Assembly: GCA_963817885.1 (NCBI GenBank) | Contig: CAWFQE010000004.1 | Location: 21,419-85,418, forward strand | Direction of reading: 5' to 3' | DNA: 64,000 nt | From: an uncultured Acidobacteriota bacterium | GTDB lineage: Bacteria; Acidobacteriota; Vicinamibacteria; Vicinamibacterales; JAKQTR01 | Shown here: positions 22,112 to 54,590 of the stretch, one piece after another | How positions within the stretch are numbered: the stretch's first letter is position 1 | Layout: each line of letters starts with the position of its first letter | The notes under the pieces: generated by a model | The model's database searches: none | Told to the model about the DNA's origin: nothing | Seen by the model: the letters and a program-made list of their open reading frames with translations, nothing else | Translations under genes and position numbers: made by a program

Positions 22112-22282
22112 GCCGGGTCTTTAGACCCGGCGGGTCCGGCGGCTCTGAAGAGCCGCCCTACATCAGATGAGCCGCCCTCCACCAGGCGGGAGCGTTCGGC
22201 TGTAGGCCGGGGCTTCAGCCCCGGCGGGTCCGGCGGCTCTGAAGAGCCGCCCTCCATCAGATGGGCCGCCCTCCACCAGGCG
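22112..22282. repeat. Two tandem ~90-nt REP-like units, each with two adjacent hairpins
   Basis: Hairpins gccgggtctttagacccggc (22112-22131) and ggcggctctgaagagccgcc (22138-22157) are followed by ctacatcagatg.gccgccctccaccaggcg. The unit repeats from 22202 with gtag + gccggggcttcagccccggc + ggcggctctgaagagccgcc. Confidence 0.75.
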
Positions 22283-30140: not shown

Positions 30141-30296
30141 GATTGATGTAGGGCGGCTCTTGAGAGCCGCCGGATTCGCCGGGTCTTTAGATTCATGTAG
30201 GGCGGCTCTTGAGAGCCGCCGGACTCGCCGGGTCTTTGGATTGATGTAGGGCGGCTCTTTAGAGCCGCCGGACTCGCCGGCCCTGAAGGGCCGGCG
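30141..30296. repeat. Three tandem 49-bp REP-like units
   Basis: GTAG heads at 30148, 30197 and 30246 give an exact 49-nt period. Each is followed by the hairpin ggcggctct[tgag/ttag]agccgcc and then cgg.ctcgccgggtcttt. The last unit ends in gccggccctgaagggccggc. Confidence 0.8.
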
Positions 30297-32339
30297 CTAC
30301 TTCCCGGCCAGTTTCCTGGCGCGATCCTGCGCGTCGCGATAGCGGGAGGAACCGGCCGGGACCTTGAGATACGCGTTCCTGGCGTCCGCGTAGGCAGAGA
30401 GCCTGCGCTCGTAGACCTCGCCCGCCTTGAACCACGCGTCCAGCTTCGTCTGAGGGAACTGCGTGCCCAGGTTCGCGTAGATCCCGGCGGCCTGGCGGTA
30501 CAGTTTCAGGTCCTCGTACATTTCTCCCATCCGCCACATCGCCGGCTCGGACGCCTGGTTGCCCGGGGCGCGTTCGACCAGCAGGCGCCGCGTCATGAGG
30601 GAGGCCGGCACGGTGATGCCGAGCGTCGGATCGAGCTCTTTCAGCCTGGCCTTGTCCTCGAGCGCGATCTTCGTGTTCATCGCGGGAACAAACCAGCTCG
30701 AGGACGGGAACTCCTCGCCGATGATGGCGAGCCGTTTGCGGATCTCGGCGTCGCCGGCCCTGGTTTTCTCGAGCAGCCGGCATTCGTTGAAGAGGGCCGC
30801 GGCAATGCGCGGATCACTCCGGTAGCGCTTCGTCACGTCCTCGTAGGTTACGATGGCGTCCTGCGGGCGGCCCTCGCGTTCCTGAACCTGTGCCAGCAGC
30901 AGGAAGGCGTCCAGCCCGGATGGCGTCTTGTCGTACAACGCCAGGAAGGCCCGAAGATCGTCGACCGCGGTTCCCGACCGCCCGGCTTCGATGGAGGCCT
31001 TGATCGGCGCAAGCGCCCGGGCGGCATCCTCGTTGAGCTTCGGGGTCGCTTTCAGGTTCGGCGGCGGGGTCGACATCGTGTCCGGCACCCGCGAGCCCGT
31101 CGCGGGTTTCCCGCTGACGGGCGCCGTGGCTGCAATCGGAGCGGACGAGGGCGCAGGACTGGTGGCCCCTGGTGAGGCCTGGGCGATATCGGTCGCGGGA
31201 CTTGCCGGCGCCGTTTCTGCCGGACGCTCCGGCGCCGCCGCGACGGGAGGCACCGGTACCGAAGCGGCGGGATCGGCCGCGCGTTTGGGCGCCGTGCCTT
31301 TGCCGGACGAAGCGGGATCGGCTGCCGGTGTCTGAACCGCCTCGGGCGAGGCCGCATCCGGCGACGGCGCACGTCCGCGCAGGAACCCGACTATCGCTCC
31401 AATCACGATCAGGAGGATGACGGCACCGCCGGCGATCATCAGCATCCGGCTTCGCGGCGGCGCCTGGATGTTGCCGTCGGCAGGCGCCTCTTTGAACAGC
31501 CGCCCGCCCGAGAGCCGCTTCAACTCGCTGATGAGCTGGTAGTCCTCGACCTCCTCGACCTTGTCGAGCTCCTCCAGGAACTTGGCGACCGAGGCGTATC
31601 GCTGGCCGGGATCCGAGGCCAGGCATTTCAGCACGATCGGATCCAGCTCCAGCGGCAATTGCCGGTTGAGTTCGCTCGGCAGGTTGAACTTGCCCGACGG
31701 AACCGTGCCCGTGAGCGCCTCGTAGCACACCACGCCGAGCGAGTAGATGTCCGCGCGCTCGTCCGGGGCGCGGCCGTCGCGGGCTTCGGGCGCCCAGTAG
31801 GGCAGCGTGCGAAGGTCCGACAGCGCCGCCGTCACGGTTCCCGTTTCGGCCGAGGGGGCCCTCATGTGTGACTGCGCGAACGCCTTGAGCTTGATGGCGG
31901 ACAGATCCTTGGCCACCAGGATCGCGTTCGGGTTCAGGCTGCCGTGGATGACCCCGTGCTCGTGCGCGAAGGCGAGGCCCTTGGCCGCTTCCCGGACCAC
32001 GTGGATCGCGGCGGCCAGCGTCAGCCGGTCCGTCGTCAGCCGGCCGGCGAGGGTGGTGCCGTCCACGTACTCCATGACCACGTAGAGCTGATCGCCGTCC
32101 TGGCCGTGGTCGATCACCCGGAGGATGTTCGGGTGGGAGAGGTTCTCGAGGACTTCGTGCTCGTGCGCGAACCGGGCGACCCGTTCGACCTTGCGCTGCG
32201 AGCGCGGCGACAGCACCTTGATGGCGACCAGGCCCGCGTTCTGGTTCCGGCGCGCCTTGTAGACGGGGCCTCGCGACCCGGTGCCGGCCACCCCCAGGAT
32301 CTCGTACGGGCCGATGCGGTGCGGATCTTCAGGCGGCAT
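30297..32339 (-). CDS. Ser/Thr protein-kinase-like protein (predicted pseudokinase), TM segment, C-terminal TPR-like domain
   Basis: ATG at 32339 (MPPEDPHRIGPYEILGVAGTGSRGPVYKARR). The VAIK lysine is present (LVAIKVL). The HRD box reads VIHGSLNPNAIL and the DFG box reads KLKAFAQS. A TM segment MLMIAGGAVILLIVIGAIVGF follows, then a TPR-like C-terminus. Confidence 0.75.
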   Translation of the reverse strand: MPPEDPHRIGPYEILGVAGTGSRGPVYKARRNQNAGLVAIKVLSPRSQRKVERVARFAHEHEVLENLSHPNILRVIDHGQDGDQLYVVMEYVDGTTLAGRLTTDRLTLAAAIHVVREAAKGLAFAHEHGVIHGSLNPNAILVAKDLSAIKLKAFAQSHMRAPSAETGTVTAALSDLRTLPYWAPEARDGRAPDERADIYSLGVVCYEALTGTVPSGKFNLPSELNRQLPLELDPIVLKCLASDPGQRYASVAKFLEELDKVEEVEDYQLISELKRLSGGRLFKEAPADGNIQAPPRSRMLMIAGGAVILLIVIGAIVGFLRGRAPSPDAASPEAVQTPAADPASSGKGTAPKRAADPAASVPVPPVAAAPERPAETAPASPATDIAQASPGATSPAPSSAPIAATAPVSGKPATGSRVPDTMSTPPPNLKATPKLNEDAARALAPIKASIEAGRSGTAVDDLRAFLALYDKTPSGLDAFLLLAQVQEREGRPQDAIVTYEDVTKRYRSDPRIAAALFNECRLLEKTRAGDAEIRKRLAIIGEEFPSSSWFVPAMNTKIALEDKARLKELDPTLGITVPASLMTRRLLVERAPGNQASEPAMWRMGEMYEDLKLYRQAAGIYANLGTQFPQTKLDAWFKAGEVYERRLSAYADARNAYLKVPAGSSRYRDAQDRARKLAGK

Positions 32340-33609
32340 CTGCTTCAAACACCATGATCGTGCCGCCGATCGCAATGCGGTCGAGCGGATTCAGGCTGCA
32401 GCGATCGACCTTCACGCCGTTGACCAGCGTGCCGAAGCTGCTGCCGAGGTCCTCGATGAGAAACCCGCCGCCGGCCCAGCTGATCCGCGCGTGCTCCTTG
32501 CTGGCCTGCGCGTCGTTCAGCTGGATGTCGCAGGTCGGGGCGCGTCCGATCGTCGACGGCCGATCCGAGAGCCGGATGGTGAGGCCGGCGCCGGCCCCGT
32601 CGCTCACGTAGAGGCGCGCGCGTGGCTCGGCCGCGCCGTCGGCCTGCGCCCGCGCCCGCGGAGCGACCTCGATGGTGCGAATCGGGTACGGGATCGTGAT
32701 GCCATTGCGCTTGAACGATTCCCAGATGCGGGCGCGCAGGTCGCTCTTGATCCGATCCACGTCGGCGATGTCCTTGATCCAGACGCGAAGTTCGTACTGG
32801 ATGGCGCTGTCCTGGTAGTCGCGGACCTGCACGTCGGGCGACGGCTTTTCGAGCGTGCCGTCGACGCCCGGGCACGCACTCGAGCAGGGCGCGGCGGACC
32901 CGGTACGGCGGCGCCGAGTAGTGCGCGCCGATCCAGACCCGCGCCATGTGCATCGGGTTCGGGTAGTAGTAGTTGAGAATCCGCTCTTCCGAGATCTTGC
33001 CGTTGGGCAGGATCAGGTTGTCGTTGTCCCTGGTCCGCAGGTGCGTCGTCCGCCACGTGATCTCGACGATGCGTCCCTCGACGTCGCCGACCTTGATCCA
33101 GTCGTTGATCCGGAACGGCTTCTCGATCGCGATGACGACGCCGGCGATGAGGTTGCGTGAGGATCGGCTGGAGCGCCAGGCCGAGGACGAGCGAGGTGAC
33201 CGCGCTCGTCGCAAACAGCGGCGCCAGGCTGATGTCCTGGTAGACGAGCTTGAGGATGATGAATCCCGCCACCACGTAGATGACGCCCTGCGTGACCGGG
33301 GCCAGCAGCGGCGGCAGCTGCACGCCCCGGTTGGCGCGCAGGTGGATGTCGAAGATGTAGATGCCGACCAGCCGCAGGACGACGATCACCGCCAGGAACG
33401 CCAGCAGCGCCGTGAAGACCTGCTCCGAGTCGGGCAGCAGGGTGACGCCCGAGAGCTTGTAGACAGCCAGGCCGGCCGCGACCGCGGCGACAATCAGGAC
33501 GAACGTGAGCTGGCGGACGATGGAGAAGCGATCGGCGCAGGTAGAAGACGGCCCCGATGATCAGGACCGTCACGCCCAGCGACGCCGTCAGCGCGAGGAG
33601 GGTCGGCAT
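32329..33609 (-). CDS. MscS-family mechanosensitive channel with C-terminal FHA domain (at least 3 frame breaks)
   Basis: The conserved sequence hops across track ORFs 33013..33609, 32604..33389, 32345..33214 and 32329..32832. MscS core: NLIAGVVIAIEKPFRINDWIKVGDVEGRIVEITWRTTHLRTRDNDNLILPNGKI. FHA: STIGRAPTCDIQLNDAQASKEHARISWAGGGFLIEDLGSSFGTLVNG. Confidence 0.7.
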
Positions 33610-33656
33610 GGTAATCAGCGTCGGGATTATACATCGCGACGCTGAACGGCCGGAGC

Positions 33657-33899
33657 AGGTTACAGGTTACAGGTTACAGGTTACAGGTTACAGGGTGCAC
33701 GCTGTCAGGTTACAGGCCACGGGCTGTGGGCCACCAACGGGACACGATGTGTTTTGACCATGGCCCAAAGCCTGTAGCCTGCAGCGTGCATCGTGCTGCC
33801 TGTAGCCTGCAGCGTGCATCGTGCTGCGTGTAGCCTGCAGCGTGCATCGTGCTGCGTGTAGCGTGCGTTCTGTAACCTGTAACCTATAACCTGTAACCT
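33657..33899. repeat. Intergenic element with complementary heptamer-array arms and an internal 28-nt tandem repeat
   Basis: (AGGTTAC)x5 at 33657-33691. The complementary arm (GTAACCT/ATAACCT)x4 is at 33872-33899. tgtagcctgcagcgtgcatcgtgctgc[c/g] starts at 33773, 33801 and 33829, with a partial copy at 33857. Confidence 0.85.
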
Positions 33900-34761
33900 A
33901 CTTCATGATCGTCGCCTTCACCTCGATGGTGATCTTCCGGTCGCTCAGCGCGTCGGAGGATTGCGCAACGACCAGCGGCACACCGCTGTCCAGGACGACC
34001 GCGAGGCTTTCCGAGACCGAGGTGTTGCCGCCCGGGATTCCTTCCGCCGGCGGATCGTCGAGGAGGTTGTACTCCAGCGTGAAGTCGACCCAGATCTTGT
34101 TGCCTTCAACCGAGGGCCTGACATCGATCGACAACGGGGCCTGGCGCCGTTCCGTTGATGGTCCCACCTTCTGGAAATACGACGCGTTGGTGCGAATCCG
34201 GCTGAACTCCCCGCTCCCGATCGTCATCGCCATCGACTTCTTCGTCGGCGGCTTGCTCCCGAGCTGATCGGTGATGGTGAATTCGACTTTGACCGCGATC
34301 ATCTTCCGGGGCTCCGCCCTGACGACTTTCGGGGCCGCCTGCGCAACGGCAGCTGGCGCTGGTACCGGCATCGCGACCTTGGGGGCCTGCCCGGGAGCCG
34401 GCGGGGGCGGCGGTGGCGGCGGCACCTGATCGTCGGCCACATCGGGAGGAGCTGGCGGCTCCATCGCGATTTCCGGCCTCACCGTTGCACGAGGCGACAT
34501 CGGCGCCTGTGCGGGCCTCGGCATTGGCGGCGTCGGCGCGACCTGCGGCACGGCAGCGAACCGGGCCGGGGCAGGCGCGGGCATGACCGGCATCGGTGCC
34601 ATGGCGGGACTCGGCAAAGTGGCCAGCGTCGCCGGCATCACGGCAGGGGCCCCTGTGGGCGCGGGCGGTGCCGTTGCGGGGACCGGCATCTGGGCCAGAG
34701 CGAGCGCAGGCAGAAGTATCAGGGCAACAGCGGCGAACATGACGAAACGTGGAGCTTTCAT
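33898..34761 (-). CDS. Secreted proline/alanine-rich protein with a beta-rich C-terminal domain
   Basis: Signal peptide MKAPRFVMFAAVALILLPALALAQ, a ~130-aa Pro/Ala-rich tract, then IAVKVEFTITDQLGSKPP...KITIEVKATIMK. Its start overlaps the stop of the upstream gene. Confidence 0.5.
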   Translation of the reverse strand: MKAPRFVMFAAVALILLPALALAQMPVPATAPPAPTGAPAVMPATLATLPSPAMAPMPVMPAPAPARFAAVPQVAPTPPMPRPAQAPMSPRATVRPEIAMEPPAPPDVADDQVPPPPPPPPAPGQAPKVAMPVPAPAAVAQAAPKVVRAEPRKMIAVKVEFTITDQLGSKPPTKKSMAMTIGSGEFSRIRTNASYFQKVGPSTERRQAPLSIDVRPSVEGNKIWVDFTLEYNLLDDPPAEGIPGGNTSVSESLAVVLDSGVPLVVAQSSDALSDRKITIEVKATIMK

Positions 34762-35961: not shown

Positions 35962-36028
35962 ACTTCCAATAGACACAGGTGGGGAGATGTTGGTTGGTAC
36001 TTTGAAAGGATGCAAGGCCCCGGAATTC

Positions 36029-36275
36029 CGGCTCGCGGCTCGCGGCTGGCGGCTGGCGACGCGCAGAACGCGCTGACCGACGGCCTGGACGCGTAACCCA
36101 TGTCCTGGCGCCGCACGCTCAACGCCCGGCCTCCATTTGACGGTCGCCTCCCGTGATTCGTGGAGACCGGGGTCCTCGGACCCCGGGAGCTCCGCCGGCC
36201 GAGCAGGCGGGCGACTGCGCTGGCCGCGCTCTGGCCGCCAGCCGCCAGCCGCAGCCGTAAGCCCCAAGCCCCTGT
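36029..36275. repeat. Intergenic element with complementary heptamer-array arms (GGCTSGC / GCCGCCA)
   Basis: Left arm ggctcgcggctcgcggctggcggctggcg at 36029-36057. Right arm gccgccagccgccagccgcagccgtaagccccaagcc at 36236-36272. The reverse complement of the right arm contains ggctggcggctggcggc. A hairpin gaccggggtcctcggaccccgg lies inside. Confidence 0.75.
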
Positions 36276-36321: not shown

Positions 36322-36460
36322 GGCTTGGCGAATCGCACTGCGGCCCGGACCCTGTGCAATCTCGAATTTGTGAACCGTGTCAGGGCCGGAAGGCAGCAGC
36401 ACTCAGCAGATCCCGCGATGTGCCGCAGGACCATCCGGGCCGCAGTGGGGTTCGCCAGGC
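36322..36460 (+). ncRNA. ffs: Signal recognition particle RNA (4.5S-type)
   Basis: The conserved domain-IV core gtcagggccggaaggcagcagc matches the E. coli 4.5S GUCAGGUCCGGAAGGAAGCAGC. The 5-prime arm ggcttggcgaatcgcactgcggcccgga pairs with the 3-prime arm tccgggccgcagtggggttcgccaggc. The position directly upstream of dnaX-ybaB-recR is a common synteny. Confidence 0.8.
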
Positions 36461-36525
36461 TAGGGGCTAGGGACTAGGCGCTAGGGGCTAGGGACTAGGC
36501 GCTAGGCTAGGCGCTGGGCGCGGTT
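36459..36525. repeat. Heptamer tandem array (CTAGGNN) abutting the SRP RNA 3-prime end
   Basis: ctagggg ctaggga ctaggcg ctagggg ctaggga ctaggcg ctagg ctaggcg ctgggcg. This amounts to two copies of a 21-nt unit plus degenerate heptads. Confidence 0.8.
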
Positions 36526-36743
36526 GGTCGGGGCCTTGGACCCGAAGCGGGTGAGTAGCCGATGATCCCACTCGCCTGCGGCCGACAGCCGACAACCGAT
36601 CCGATGACCGGACGCCGAGTTCCGACAGCCTGGAGCCTGAACCTGGTAGCCCGAAACCAGAAACAACCCGTAGCCTGAATTCGGCAGCCTGAGGCGTTAC
36701 AAGGCCTCCAGCCGCCAGCCTCCAGCCGAGAGCCGTTTCGCCC

Positions 36744-38593
36744 ATGTCCTATACCGTCATTGCCCGGCGCTGGCGCCCGCAGAAGCTCGATGATGTCGTG
36801 GGTCAGCGCGCGGTCACCCAGACCTTGCGCAACGCCGTCACCCGCGGGCGCATCGCCCAGGCCTTCGTGTTCGCCGGGCCGCGCGGCGTCGGCAAGACCA
36901 CGACCGCGCGCATCCTCGCCCGCATGCTCAACTGCGTGGACGGGCCGACCGCCGACCCCTGCGGAACGATGCGAAGCCTGCGTCGAGATTGCCGACGGCG
37001 CGCGACATGGACGTCCTCGAGATCGACGCCGCCACGCACACCGGCATCGACAACGTGCGCGAGGTCATCATCTCGGGCCTGGCCATCATGCCGGTCCGCG
37101 ACCGCTACAAGGTGTTCATCATCGACGAGGTCCACCAGCTCTCGGCCTCGTCGTTCAACGCCCTGCTCAAGTCGATCGAGGAGCCGCCGCCGCACGTCGC
37201 CTTCATCATGGCGACCACGGCGCCCGACAAGATCCCGGACACGATCGTGTCCCGGGCGCAGCTGTTCGAGTTCCGCACGATTTCGAGCGGCGCGATTGCC
37301 GACCAGCTCAGAAGAATCGCCGAGAACAGGGATCCCCGGTCCGTCCCGACGTTCACGGCGAGTCGGAACCCCTCGAACAGGCGCGAATCACCGTGTCGGA
37401 CGAGGCGCTGGCGCTCATCGCCCGCGCGGCCGAAGGCAGCATGCGCGACGCCGAGACGGCCTTCGATCAGGTGATCGCCTTTGCCGGCACCACGATCACG
37501 ATCGAGGACGTGGCGACGGTGCTCGGCCTGGTCGGGCGCGATCTGCTCTTCGACATCCTGACGGCGGTGGCCGACGAGAACGCGCCTGCCGCCTTCGAGC
37601 TGGCCGGCCGCGCCGTGGAGTCGGGCTACGACCTCCGCATGCTGTGCCGCGAGCTGTCGCGCCTGGTGCGGGACGTGATGGTGCTCAACGTCGATCCGTC
37701 GCGGATGGAGGATGGGGAGATCGCGCCGGAAGGCGATCGCCCGCGCCTGGCGGCGTTGATGCCGCGCTTCTCGCGCGAGGATCTGCTGAGGGCGTTCGAT
37801 CAGCTGACGCGCGCCGAGCTGGACATCCGGAACTCGACCGAGCCGCGCCACCAGCTCGAGATGGCGCTGCTGCGATGGATGCACCTGCGCAAGCTGGCGC
37901 CGCTCTCCGAGATCATCGCCGGCCTGCAGGGCGGCGGGAGCCCGCGGCGGCTCCCCGAGTACGCCGGGCCGGCCAGGGCCAGCGCCCGGGCCCGGCCGCG
38001 CCGTTGCCGGGACCGCGCCGCCCGGCGAGACGGCGAGACCCCCGGCGTCGACAGCCGCTCGCGTGGCGGAGGTCCGGGCGTCGCGCGCGGCAGCGCCGGC
38101 GACCTCACCAGCCTCCGCCCCGGCCCCCGCGCCAGAGAGAGCCCAGCGCGACGCGGAACCGGCGCCGGTCGACGGGCGGAACGCCGGTGGCCTGAAGGAG
38201 CGCCTGCTCGGCGAGATCCAGCGCAGCCGCGCCGTCCTCTACGGAACCGTTGTCGCGCAGGCCCAGCGCATCGAGGTGACGGCCGACCGCGTGACGTTCA
38301 CCTTCTCGCCGACGCACCGGATCCTGGCCGACCAGGTGACACAGCAGAAGGCCTGGATCGAGAGCCTGGCCACGGGCCTCGCGGGCCGGCCCATCACGGT
38401 GGCCTCGGCGGTAGGCGATGCCGCCGCTCCGCGCGAGCCGGTGTCCGGCACGCTCGGACCCGCCAGTGGCGCATCCAGGGGGCCTGAGCCGGCCGACCTG
38501 AAGGCCGAAGCCCTCGCGAACCCTGCCGTGCAGGCGCTTCTCGAAATCTTCCCGGTCGAGATCCGGGGCGTCGAGGAAGTCGAGCCACAATGA
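36744..38593 (+). CDS. dnaX: DNA polymerase III subunit gamma/tau, reading frame broken at least 5 times
   Basis: [64 protein letters not shown]. Next come [61 protein letters not shown], and [20 protein letters not shown]... The C-terminal domain ends ..[18 protein letters not shown]. These segments lie in different frames (track ORFs 36744, 36760, 36989, 38063). Confidence 0.85.
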
Positions 38594-47101: not shown

Positions 47102-47370
47102 CTTCTACCTCCCACCAGGCGGATATGCCTGGCGTCGAATTGGAATTTTTCTGGCCCCCAACCGACGTCCTCATACTCAAATGGTGTGCCATTGGCAGCC
47201 GCCAGAAGAGTCGCGGTTTTCGGTGACTAATTAAGTCGGAAATCCAAGTTCCTGAATCGGGGACAGGCCGGACAATACAAACGGCTGGATCTCCAGCATG
47301 CGCAAGGATTAAGCGCGAGCCGGAGTGGGGGAACCCGCAGGCTTGTTCCTTCGTAGGTTACCTGGCGTCA

Positions 47371-47461
47371 GGCTTGGGGGCTAAGGCTTGGGGCTTCCGG
47401 CCTGGGGCTTGCGGCCAGCGCCTGGGCACCGCCCTTAGCCCTGAGCCTCAAGCCCCTAGCC
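47371..47461. repeat. Back-to-back heptad-periodic arms (..GGC periodic, then ..AGCC periodic)
   Basis: ggcttgggggctaaggcttggggcttccggcctggggcttgcggcc (47371-47416) faces gcccttagccctgagcctcaagcccctagcc (47431-47461). The right arm overlaps the stop of the ABC-2 permease gene. Confidence 0.6.
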
Positions 47462-48227: not shown

Positions 48228-49255
48228 CCGCGCAGGCTCCTTCCCGTGTGGTGCAGGAACAAATTCTCGAGGCTCGGCTCGGAGATGTGGACGTCGTGAA
48301 TGGTGGCCCCCGCCGCGCTCGCCGCGGAGACAATCTGCGGGATGAGCGTGCCGCCCTGGTCGGCGAACAGATCGACCCCGCCGGGCGGCTGGGCTTTCAC
48401 TTCGGTCACGCCGGCAATCTGCGCGAGGCGCGCGGTCAACCCGTCGCTCACCTCGTCGAACGACAGCCGCAGCAGGAAGCCCCCGGGCACCGACCGCTTC
48501 AACTCCGCGGGCGAGCCCATCGCGATCACGCGCCCGTGGTCGATGATCGCGAGCCGGTGGCACAGCGCGTCGGCTTCCTCCATGTTGTGCGTCGTCAGGA
48601 GGACGGTGTGGCCGCTCCGGTTGAAGTCCGCGATGAGGTCCCACAGCATCAGGCGCGTCTGGGGATCGAGCCCGGTGCTGGGCTCGTCGAGAAACAGCAC
48701 CTGGGGATCGTGCATCAGCGCCCGGGCGATCGAGAGGCGCTGCATCATGCCGCCCGAGAAGCCGGTCACCATCTGATCGGCGCGATCGGTGAGCTTGAAG
48801 CGATCGAGCAGTTCAGCCGCCCGGGCCCGGGCGTCGGCGGCCGGGATCCCGAAATAGGCCGCGTGGAACATCAGGATCTCGCGCGCCGTCAGCGCGAAGT
48901 CCAGGTTCGGTTTCTGCGGCACGACGCCGATCAGGCGCTTGACCGTCGAGTGATCGCGCCACACGTCCAGGCCGCCGATGAACGCCTTCCCGCCGGTCGG
49001 GCGGATGCGCGTGGTGAGCACGCCCACCGTGGTGGACTTGCCGGCGCCGTTCGGGCCGAGCAGGCCGAAAATCTCGCCGGGACTGACCTCGAGCGAGACG
49101 CCATCGAGCGCCACGACCTCGTATTTCTTCTTCTCGCGGCGCTTGAAGAACTTCACGCCCGTCATCGGCCCGCCGCGCACGATGGCGCCGGCAGGCGGCG
49201 GAGAGGTGTAGATCTTGCGGAGAGAGTCGATGCGGATGCCGACGTCCATGGGCAT
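48224..49255 (-). CDS. ABC transporter ATP-binding protein (DrrA/ABC-2 type)
   Basis: Walker A GPNGAGKST, signature FSGGMMQRLSIARAL, Walker B VLFLDEPSTGLD and H-loop LLTTHNMEEA. The frame is intact at 343 aa. Confidence 0.85.
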   Translation of the reverse strand: MPMDVGIRIDSLRKIYTSPPPAGAIVRGGPMTGVKFFKRREKKKYEVVALDGVSLEVSPGEIFGLLGPNGAGKSTTVGVLTTRIRPTGGKAFIGGLDVWRDHSTVKRLIGVVPQKPNLDFALTAREILMFHAAYFGIPAADARARAAELLDRFKLTDRADQMVTGFSGGMMQRLSIARALMHDPQVLFLDEPSTGLDPQTRLMLWDLIADFNRSGHTVLLTTHNMEEADALCHRLAIIDHGRVIAMGSPAELKRSVPGGFLLRLSFDEVSDGLTARLAQIAGVTEVKAQPPGGVDLFADQGGTLIPQIVSAASAAGATIHDVHISEPSLENLFLHHTGRSLRG

Positions 49256-49530
49256 AGGTTATAGGTTACAGGTTACAGGTTACAGGGGACAGGTTACAGG
49301 GGACAGGTCACAGGCTATTGGTTGACCGCTGCCCTTGCCAGGCCGTAGCGCGACAGCGCGAAGGTGGGAGCCGTGAGCCGTGAGCGTTGTGCCGCGCGCA
49401 ATGCCGCCCTGCGCGGTGACTGCACCCCGGGTCGAGAGCCCTGAGAATTTCTTGTCGTCGTAAACGCCGCCTTGCGAGTGCATCATCGGCCGTTCACCCT
49501 GTAACCTATAACCTGTACCCTGTAACCTCT
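49254..49530. repeat. Intergenic element with complementary heptamer-array arms (A[TC]AGGNN / ..CCTGTAA)
   Basis: About 10 heptads ataggtt ataggtt acaggtt acaggtt acagggg acaggtt acagggg acaggtc acaggct attggtt at 49254-49323. The complementary arm accctgt aacctat aacctgt accctgt aacctct is at 49496-49530. The element fills the divergent intergenic region. Confidence 0.85.
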
Positions 49531-51183: not shown

Positions 51184-51398
51184 CAAACACGGCTGGCGGC
51201 TGGCGGCTAACGGCCGGAAGCCGCGCACAACGTCGACGAAGTGTCACCTATGTCCTGAGAATGATCTGTCACCTATGTCCTTGACCGAACGGGCTCCGGG
51301 GCGTGCGCCGAGCCTCGAGCCTTTAGCCCCAGGCCTTTAGCCCCAAGCCTTTAGCCCGTTTCTGCGCTAGACTTACCCGTTCCGGGAGGAAACCAATA

Positions 51399-54515: not shown

Positions 54516-54590
54516 TCCTCAGTAGCTCAATGGCAGAGCATCCGGCTGTTAACCGGAGGGTTGCAGGTTCGAGTCTTGCCTGAGGAGCCA
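54516..54590 (+). tRNA. tRNA-Asn (anticodon GTT)
   Basis: Cloverleaf by hand: acceptor TCCTCAG/CTGAGGA, D-arm GCTC-AATGGCA-GAGC, anticodon arm TCCGG-CTGTTAA-CCGGA, variable GGGTT, T-arm GCAGG-TTCGAGT-CTTGC, discriminator G, encoded CCA. Confidence 0.9.

Follow-up and report, generated by a model that had tools for sequence, protein, structure and literature searches.

Convergent heptanucleotide repeat arrays in an intergenic gap of an uncultured Acidobacteriota bacterium and in corresponding gaps of some relatives

What kind of element occupies most of the gap between an MscS-FHA channel gene and its upstream neighbour, at positions 33657–33899 of a 64-kb stretch of DNA from an uncultured Acidobacteriota bacterium (assembly GCA_963817885.1, contig CAWFQE010000004.1; this stretch is called the window here and all positions refer to it, and the loci compared with it carry L-numbers, L001–L119, L120–L127 and so on)? 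An initial annotation described complementary arms of heptamers around a repeated core, suggested selection for a hairpin or a family of MITEs (miniature inverted-repeat transposable elements), and was aware of no earlier description of such an element. The feature is genuine and strongly non-random, and it is a member of the published class of heptanucleotide simple sequence repeats (SSRs), which are also called long SSRs, short tandemly repeated repetitive (STRR)-like repeats or heptameric SSRs. It is a convergent pair of such arrays, is not mobile, and probably, though by no means certainly, grew by slippage on a terminator-type inverted repeat. New here are a comparative series across relatives and a check of the polarity rule of these repeats across phyla.

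Anatomy of the paired arrays

The perfect AGGTTAC heptads of the left arm, the degenerate units at 33707–33720 and the four reverse-complement units of the right arm were all found where the initial annotation had placed them, one right-hand unit reading ATAACCT (Table 1). A 14-mer probe of two units with up to two mismatches had 18 matches in the window against 0.03 expected, and Tandem Repeats Finder assigned period 7 to both arms (5.6 copies, 100%; 4.3 copies, 91%), as for heptanucleotide tandem repeats. The 28-nt repeat of 3.5 copies, which had been taken for a separate core, is genuine (97% matches at 33770–33866), but the same stretch is alternatively described by period 7 with 13 copies, and cutting 33770–33899 into sevens gives a single unbroken register of 18.5 units that runs through the repeat and the outer arm alike: GCCTGTA GCCTGCA GCGTGCA TCGTGCT (3.5 times), then GCGTGCG TTCTGTA ACCTGTA ACCTATA ACCTGTA ACCT. 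In these units, T is found at the fourth position in 18 of 18, and C at the second and G at the fifth position in 17 of 18 each. The 28-nt repeat is a higher-order repeat of four degenerate heptads within the right array, and its supposed GTAG head is merely the junction of the heptad GCCTGTA with the G that follows. Because the 28-mer is in register with the right arm, the element consists of two convergent heptad arrays (∼78 and ∼130 nt) around a unique centre of 35 nt. A local 8-bp hairpin is predicted to be possible in each 28-mer.

Read from outside to inside on the G-rich strand, both arms have (AGGTTAC)n followed by degenerate units (left arm, AGGGTGC ACGCTGT; right arm, AGAACGC ACGCTAC), and this identical order of units indicates that the arms are true mirror copies and not two independent arrays. 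As an inverted repeat, they are 82% complementary over 49 nt or 90% complementary over 40 nt, and thus have the terminal inverted repeats that are expected of MITEs. Since the arms are complementary, hairpin arms of ∼35–50 bp can form in any transcript that spans the gap or in single-stranded DNA. Compared with dinucleotide shuffles, the predicted RNA fold had −154 kcal/mol and a z-score of −9.6 on the plus strand, and −143 kcal/mol and −8.9 on the minus strand; slightly different limits gave −11.7 and −9.2, and the corresponding DNA folds −9.2 and −8.5. The complementarity within this copy and its strong hairpin potential, both noted initially, are therefore upheld, with z-scores of about −9 to −12. 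The inner left array has a phase slip of 1 nt at 33706; since the window is rich in frameshifts, this slip and the exact copy numbers could be assembly-level errors, and the heptad arrays themselves recur in independent assemblies.

The element is not the whole gap, as had been supposed. The left arm ends 47 nt from the ATG of the MscS-FHA gene, and this spacer holds a conserved box, TGTATAAT, that the window shares with two relatives, L122 (1069–1076) and L123 (10923–10930), in each case 20–40 nt upstream of the MscS-FHA start. The three gaps are otherwise unalignable, and their sole conserved block is CGCRRTGTATAATC. The box is probably the promoter −10 element of the MscS-FHA gene itself; a consensus promoter scan showed no full −35/−10 match near it.

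Recurrence, turnover among relatives and polarity

Heptads that are G-rich on the left and C-rich on the right are present in six intergenic gaps of the window, with the units AGGTTAC, CGGCTGG, GGCTAGG and GGCTTGG. The plan that had been reported to recur at 36029–36275 and 49254–49530 does recur there, and in three more gaps too, but the latter of these two copies is not built on a different heptamer as was claimed; it has AGGTTAC again. Among the non-coding tandem repeats of the window, period 7 prevails: of the periods that are not multiples of 3, 7 had 12 runs, 10 had one, and 4, 5, 8 and 11 had none. Array density was 0.16 per kb in the window and 0.05–0.72 per kb in relatives, compared with 7 arrays across the 744 kb of an unselected background of metagenome contigs, which indicates that the enrichment is lineage-specific; this background comprised 120 metagenome loci that were picked up by a conserved 17-mer from C-terminal coding sequence and proved not to be orthologous (tblastn returned nothing). 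The predicted folds of 33657–33899, 36026–36272 and 49250–49528 were significantly better than those of shuffled sequences, whereas those of the other three elements were not (z −0.3 to −2.7). Selection for a hairpin, which had been proposed, is thus not a general rule: base-pairing is not the common denominator of the six elements, and the 7-nt period and the G-first polarity are.

Relatives were found with the 287-aa protein that is encoded upstream of the element, and their syntenic contigs all have the order dnaX, signal recognition particle (SRP) RNA, extracytoplasmic function (ECF) sigma factor, anti-sigma protein and 287-aa gene. In the gap after this last gene, L122 (an independent metagenome contig of the Joint Genome Institute (JGI), 77% protein identity) has the stop codon TGA followed by (AGGTTAC)∼6, a different core of 70 nt and (CCTGTAA)∼4, with a fold z-score of −4.0; L127 has (GGGGTTC)4–5 paired with GAACCCC-type units; and L124 has (AGGCTTC)∼3, a 9-nt loop and (GCCTGRA)∼3. 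Other G-rich heptads begin at the stop codon, or within 14 nt of it, in L121, L125 and L126, and L123 has no heptads at all and only a plain GC hairpin of 11 bp. The state of this one gap therefore ranges from a plain hairpin through short heptad hairpins to the long form of the window. The comparison of presence and absence among relatives that had been proposed yields no clean empty site, as the orthologous gaps carry either arrays of other units or the plain hairpin. In the gaps between dnaX, the SRP RNA and the sigma factor gene, most relatives have arrays beside the dnaX start, the SRP promoter and the sigma promoter motif, always G-first and with differing units; for example, the (GGCTAGG)9 of the window is a single GGCTAGA at its counterpart in L121. 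Between the strains L120 and L121, which are 97.5–99% identical, a GGGGCTC array (position 42 in L120 and 46 in L121) differs by exactly one 7-nt unit, and the other indels between them include many of 1–2 nt and one of 6 nt. A difference of a single 7-nt unit points to slippage and not to transposition. Copy numbers also differ between the window and L122 at the studied gap, although these two are distant relatives. The G-rich strand contains GGYT in 23 of 33 array units of the clade (window and L121–L127), compared with ∼10% expected, and the full units differ in sequence (AGGTTAC, GGCTGGA, GGCTAGG, AGGCTTC, GGGGTTC and CAGGGCT).

A general detector of period 7 was run on 120 loci and the window. 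All 17 complementary array pairs that it found (∼14 of them independent, with units including TTGGTCA and TAGGGAA) were G-first. Of 162 intergenic arrays from many phyla, 128 had the G-rich strand with its 5′-end towards the closer edge of an open reading frame (ORF) (p = 5e-14), the median distance being 10 nt. This polarity holds at stop edges (73:20) as well as at start edges (55:14) and is independent of gene orientation. Pairs often occupy a whole gap, mostly between co-directional genes and in some cases between convergent or divergent ones. As causes of the polarity, transcription- or replication-linked mutational skew was rejected, because neither yields a pattern that is mirror-symmetric about the gap. 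Head-to-head addition of G-rich repeats at a break, as in telomere fusion, would give the G-first order; no evidence supporting it was found, and we know of no bacterial enzyme for such an addition.

Arrays of the AGGTTAC unit are also not confined to this lineage. An exact search for (AGGTTAC)3 with one genome per species returned at least 119 loci, and hosts among the matches listed were Acidobacteriota, Gemmatimonadota, Chloroflexota, Bacteroidota, Nostocales, Planctomycetota and members of the candidate phyla radiation (Yanofskybacteria and Saccharimonadales). Further loci and conservation, on which the initial annotation had made its proposal depend, are thus present at three levels: the six gaps of the window, the orthologous arrays of relatives and these matches. 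In viral contigs (L248–L269), (AGGTTAC)3 had 22 matches, and three control heptads of the same composition had 11, 1 and 0; AGGTTAC is hence common among heptads there, and not unique.

Tandem heptamers named STRR were reportedly described in cyanobacteria by Mazel et al. in 1990, and the STRR2 unit TTGGTCA was found here as a G-first pair in L085. The closest published counterparts, which contradict the statement that no element of this form has been described, are those of Rehm et al. 2015 (PMC4692102), who reported tandem heptamers over-represented in intergenic DNA, GGGAATC in Xanthomonas and GGGGA(C/T)T in Nostoc PCC 7120. These repeats are mostly within 50 bp of an ORF, and their G-rich strand has its 5′-end at the closest ORF, in whichever direction this ORF runs; 70–75 convergent inverted pairs per Xanthomonas genome are able to form stem-loops; and their position is conserved between species while length and sequence vary, with no tie to gene function or mobile elements and no functional role found (PMC4692102). 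The arrays described here agree in being intergenic and of 7-nt units, in G-first polarity at ORF edges, in forming convergent pairs and in varying in length at conserved positions, and at the studied gap the stop codon even overlaps the first unit. They differ from the Rehm repeats in that several unit families occur within one genome, the arrays have greater length and become degenerate inward, the 28-nt higher-order repeat is present in one arm, and the host is of a different phylum, tentatively Acidobacteria-like from one named homologue at 58% identity.

Other known heptamer repeats share less. According to the summaries in PMC4679880 and PMC4692102, Mrazek, Guo and Shah (2007) found heptanucleotides to be the most abundant class of long SSRs (repeats of 5–11 nt), enriched in large, high-G+C genomes of non-pathogens, and proposed polymerase slippage as their origin; as summarized there, the surveys list arrays and carry no mention of a paired arm/core/arm layout or of polarity. 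MacGregor 2015 (PMC4679880) described TAACTGA direct repeats in marine Beggiatoaceae, cyanobacteria and Bacteroidetes, which are scattered across phyla and precede, by a few nucleotides, start codons without a canonical ribosome-binding site. The C-rich arm of the present element, read on the sense strand (TAACCTG), resembles TAACTGA, whereas the TAACTGA repeats form 169 direct sets and 1 indirect set of 2–6 copies, with one unit dominating the genome. The ‘global regulator binding sites’ of Geobacter metallireducens (PMC2700814), a second precedent, are multicopy groups of four or five tandem heptanucleotides (GGGACCG, MTYCTGA), mostly paired and drawn as strand-switching loops; they differ in that copy number is fixed at 4–5, some are inside genes, and the regulator role is annotated only.

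Origin of the arrays and competing explanations

In the history that we consider probable, the upstream operon would have ended in an inverted repeat of terminator type, close behind its stop codon, which acted as the seed. L123 still has only such a plain hairpin at this position. Both arms would then have lengthened in steps of 7 nt through slipped-strand mispairing, one of them also amplifying a block of four heptads into the 28-mer, and the arrays, which end at the stop codon and, at their other limit, at the conserved promoter box of the MscS-FHA gene, may have spread until they met this constrained sequence. The arms would be complementary because both descend from one inverted repeat and kept one family of units. 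Hairpins of enterobacterial repetitive extragenic palindromic (REP) sequences and bacterial interspersed mosaic elements (BIMEs) stabilize the 3′-ends of mRNAs and attenuate transcription. By analogy with these, a 3′-end hairpin of the upstream transcript is the most likely role of the element, if it has any, and it could terminate or insulate this transcript, or shield it from exonucleases, ahead of the MscS-FHA promoter.

Several observations weigh against this history of slippage on a terminator hairpin or against a purely RNA-level role. The plus strand, which is not the sense strand, folds slightly better than the sense strand, and with no preference for the sense strand there is no RNA-specific signature. 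A consensus scan of 33400–34100 found no terminator-like site, and no U-run follows the hairpin (the sequence 3′ of the stem is CUGCUCCGGCC), so that it lacks the make-up of an intrinsic terminator. The arms are poorly complementary in three of the six window elements, and the length of one arm shows no significant correlation with that of its partner (rho 0.37, p 0.18). The element at 36026–36272 lies upstream of both flanking promoters and that at 49250–49528 between divergent genes, and therefore one transcript should not hold both arms there. The unit-step polymorphism was seen in the GGGGCTC array of L120 and L121 and not at the studied locus, and the polarity statistics rest on crude gene calls. 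Neutral slippage alone fails to account for the strict G-first polarity and for GGYT in 23 of the 33 clade units; our explanation leaves the polarity, this shared core and the preference for period 7 unaccounted for.

These same features could be explained if the heptads were phased arrays, with GGYT and ARCC strands, that were selected for binding a protein with a footprint of ∼7 nt on single-stranded RNA or DNA, the main alternative, which we regard as fairly unlikely. Cold-shock domains have a footprint of 7 nt, and candidate binders would include cold-shock and other OB-fold proteins, ribosomal protein S1, the N-terminal domain of Rho, CsrA or a DNA-binding regulator. The polarity would then be functional: for example, C-rich and G-poor arrays facing ORF entries might be loading sites for Rho or S1, with G-rich arrays after stop codons. 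The strictness of the polarity whatever the gene orientation, its persistence together with position at orthologous gaps despite the turnover of units, the excess of GGYT, the return of the AGGTTAC unit in many phyla and the presence of arrays next to start codons with no visible Shine–Dalgarno sequence all fit with such binding. Moreover, MacGregor proposed S1, cold-shock proteins (Csp) or CsrA for the TAACTGA repeats just upstream of start codons (PMC4679880), and deletion of heptamer repeats altered the regulation of a reporter in Nostoc (bioRxiv 10.1101/2022.06.06.494920). However, neither this analysis nor the papers cited point to a particular binding protein, the unit sequences are highly diverse, copy number and unit change freely among relatives, and the arrays at 36026–36272, being upstream of both promoters, would not be in RNA. 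The GGYT core could also be mere common descent of arrays within the clade.

A broader form of this idea, to which we attach a low probability, is that convergent G-first arrays are not neutral microsatellites and are actively maintained across phyla as boundary elements of intergenic regions. They might be phased loading sites that guard ORF entries for a single-strand binder with a 7-nt footprint (Csp, S1 or Rho-like), or possibly products of a dedicated polar mechanism of repeat addition or copying. If this were true, the first comparative evidence for it would be the persistence of position and polarity despite unit turnover, the GGYT core of the clade, and the validity of the rule in a spacer that is upstream of both promoters.

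It is very improbable that the element is mobile, either MITE-like or of the kind formed by paired REP sequences (REPINs), with the arrays acting as modular terminal inverted repeats that are mobilized in trans by a transposase or a REP-associated tyrosine transposase (RAYT). What suggests mobility is the arm–core–arm architecture with similar total lengths (243–279 bp), a 28-mer that has a REP-like GTAG followed by an 8-bp stem, and the presence of a genuine REP-like family (GTAG and hairpin) in the window. As in MITEs, terminal inverted repeats surround a core of ∼150–200 bp in an intergenic position. However, the cores of 33657–33899, 49250–49528 and L122 are unalignable, so there is no shared core, and there is no target-site duplication, as the flanks (CCGGAGC before the first AGGTTAC, ACTTCAT after the last GTAACCT) contain no direct repeat. 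No insertion polymorphism was in evidence; the only length difference inside a heptad array between strains is one 7-nt unit, and in relatives, whose units differ, the arms at the orthologous positions likewise adjoin start codons, stop codons and promoters. On these grounds the MITE-like family with modular terminal inverted repeats that was first suggested is not sustained. The elements share with REPs, BIMEs and REPINs the intergenic hairpins, the frequent inverted pairs and the filling of gaps. REPs differ in having units of 20–40 nt with a GTAG head and an imperfect palindrome, in being dispersed as near-identical copies and in being tied to RAYTs, whereas the present arms are microsatellites whose unit and copy number vary from locus to locus. 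The GTAG and stem of the 28-mer were ruled out as a REP, since GTAG arises in phase from the heptad array and the 28-mer is found only here; its 26-nt core had no exact match in JGI metagenome contigs, and the true REP-like family of the window differs in sequence.

A G-quadruplex or i-motif element, as proposed for the GGGAATC and GGGGAYT repeats that share repeat class and polarity with ours (PMC4692102), is highly improbable here although the (GGCTAGG)n array at 36458–36521 has at least four G3–4 tracts, because the studied element has no G3 tract, which makes this explanation inapplicable: AGGTTAC has only GG and the inner units a single G or GG, in place of the four or more G3 tracts of a quadruplex, so that a weak two-tetrad structure would be the best available, against a competing hairpin predicted at −143 to −154 kcal/mol, and many units across phyla have no G-tract. 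Collapsed or mis-polished low-complexity sequence is hardly credible as the source of the arrays, for although frameshifts of the kind typical of indel-prone long-read assembly are many in essential genes (at least three frames in dnaX and four in MscS-FHA), an AGGTTAC-armed element lies at the orthologous position in the independent contig L122, heptad arrays occupy the same gaps in six further independent assemblies and are found in at least 119 genome records, and the L120 and L121 assemblies agree on their arrays except for one unit.

Gene neighbourhood and significance

Both genes that flank the element are on the minus strand. The upstream one is the last of a cluster, and in L122, too, the stop codon abuts the first heptad. 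The MscS-FHA gene was identified through intact orthologues; in the window it is spread over four reading frames (32338–33609), and dnaX (36744–38584) over at least three, where L122 and L123 have intact genes, which suggests an indel-prone assembly rather than pseudogenes. L120 likewise has many 1-nt indels compared with L121. At the element itself, Rfam 15 gave nothing at either gathering or permissive thresholds (the best was MIR1144, with 24.9 bits against a gathering score of 90), and its only matches in the whole window were the SRP RNA and one tRNA.

The small SRP RNA of bacterial type (36342–36444, 69 bits) has heptad-array elements on both sides. Its promoter, TTGATC-N16-TACACT, is conserved in L123. 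Upstream of the ECF sigma gene, at ∼35972–36000 on the minus strand, a motif GTACCAACC-N∼14-CTGTGTC is conserved at orthologous sites in L121 and L123–L127; it looks like an autoregulated promoter of ECF type, and in most relatives C-rich heptad arrays end just upstream of it. A G-quadruplex is conceivable, from its G-tracts, in the (GGCTAGG)∼9 array beside the SRP RNA. At 49249–49258, an AGGTTAC array adjoins the candidate ATG (49255) of an ABC-transporter ATPase gene and is 6 nt from an alternative ATG (49249), leaving no room for a Shine–Dalgarno sequence; dnaX (ATG at 36744) likewise has no clear Shine–Dalgarno sequence. A REP-like family, GTAGGGCGGCTCTTSAGAGCCGCC, which combines a GTAG head with a hairpin of 8 bp, occurs five times in the window (0 expected) and is distinct from the heptad arrays; in two intergenic gaps (Table 1) its copies form a 94-nt repeat (×1.8) and a 49-nt tandem repeat (×2.9). 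A tRNA-Asn (GTT) gene is located at 54516–54590.

Table 1. Heptad-array elements of the window and neighbouring features (z, fold z-scores)
Feature	Position	Strand	Description
Outer left arm	33657–33691	+	AGGTTAC ×5, all perfect; sense (minus) strand (GTAACCT)5, upstream of the MscS-FHA promoter box
Inner left array	33692–33734	+	Degenerate G-rich heptads AGGGTGC ACGCTGT (c) AGGTTAC AGGCCAC GGGCTGT GGGCCAC
Non-repeated centre	33735–33769		35 nt, CAACGGGACACGATGTGTTTTGACCATGGCCCAAA; small apical hairpin of the predicted fold
Inner right array	33770–33871	+	14.5 degenerate heptads, consensus RC(C/G)TG(C/T)A, in the register of the outer right arm; 28-nt higher-order repeat ×3.5
Outer right arm	33872–33899	+	GTAACCT GTAACCT ATAACCT GTAACCT, one unit mismatched; minus strand (AGGTTAC)4 straight after the stop codon
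Box TGTATAAT	33626–33633	−	−10-like; bounds the element, not part of the repeat
MscS-FHA channel gene, start codon	33607–33609	−	ATG at 33609
Upstream gene	33898–34761	−	287 aa, no Pfam match; last of the cluster ECF sigma factor, probable anti-sigma protein, 287-aa protein
Stop codon of the 287-aa gene	33898–33900	−	TAG; overlaps the first heptad by two bases
CGGCTSG/CCAGCCG-armed element	36026–36272		Flanked by the ECF-sigma promoter motif and by the SRP RNA promoter; z −4.1/−4.9
(GGCTAGG)∼9 and AGCCTNN/CCAGCCT units	36458–36734		Starts 14 nt after the SRP RNA, ends just before the dnaX start; arms weakly complementary; z −1.5/−0.3
Short convergent arrays	47370–47460		Period-7 units, GGCTTGG-type then AGCCCNN-type
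Second AGGTTAC/GTAACCT-armed element	49250–49528		Unrelated core; between divergent genes; z −4.4/−3.3
(CGGCTGG)∼3 and (AGCCTTTAGCCCCA)∼3	51190–51357		First directly after a stop codon, second before the next gene; arms weakly complementary
GTAGGGCGGCTCTTSAGAGCCGCC copies	22138–22255	−	Intergenic
GTAGGGCGGCTCTTSAGAGCCGCC copies	30148–30269	+	Intergenic

Gaps of this type are pairs of heptanucleotide microsatellites, and the labels MITE, REP, small RNA and CRISPR-like array should be avoided when they are annotated. The heptad arrays are likely to be hypervariable markers for strain typing, and their practical value is modest. Gene-flanking heptamer repeats were first seen in cyanobacteria, and the studies of 2015 settled on no function for them. 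In the present lineage nearly every gap around dnaX, the SRP RNA and the ECF sigma operon carries arrays, with conserved position and polarity and fast-changing units, and because L123 has a plain hairpin at the studied gap, these relatives form a natural comparative series for the effects of such arrays on termination, translation initiation and antisense control.

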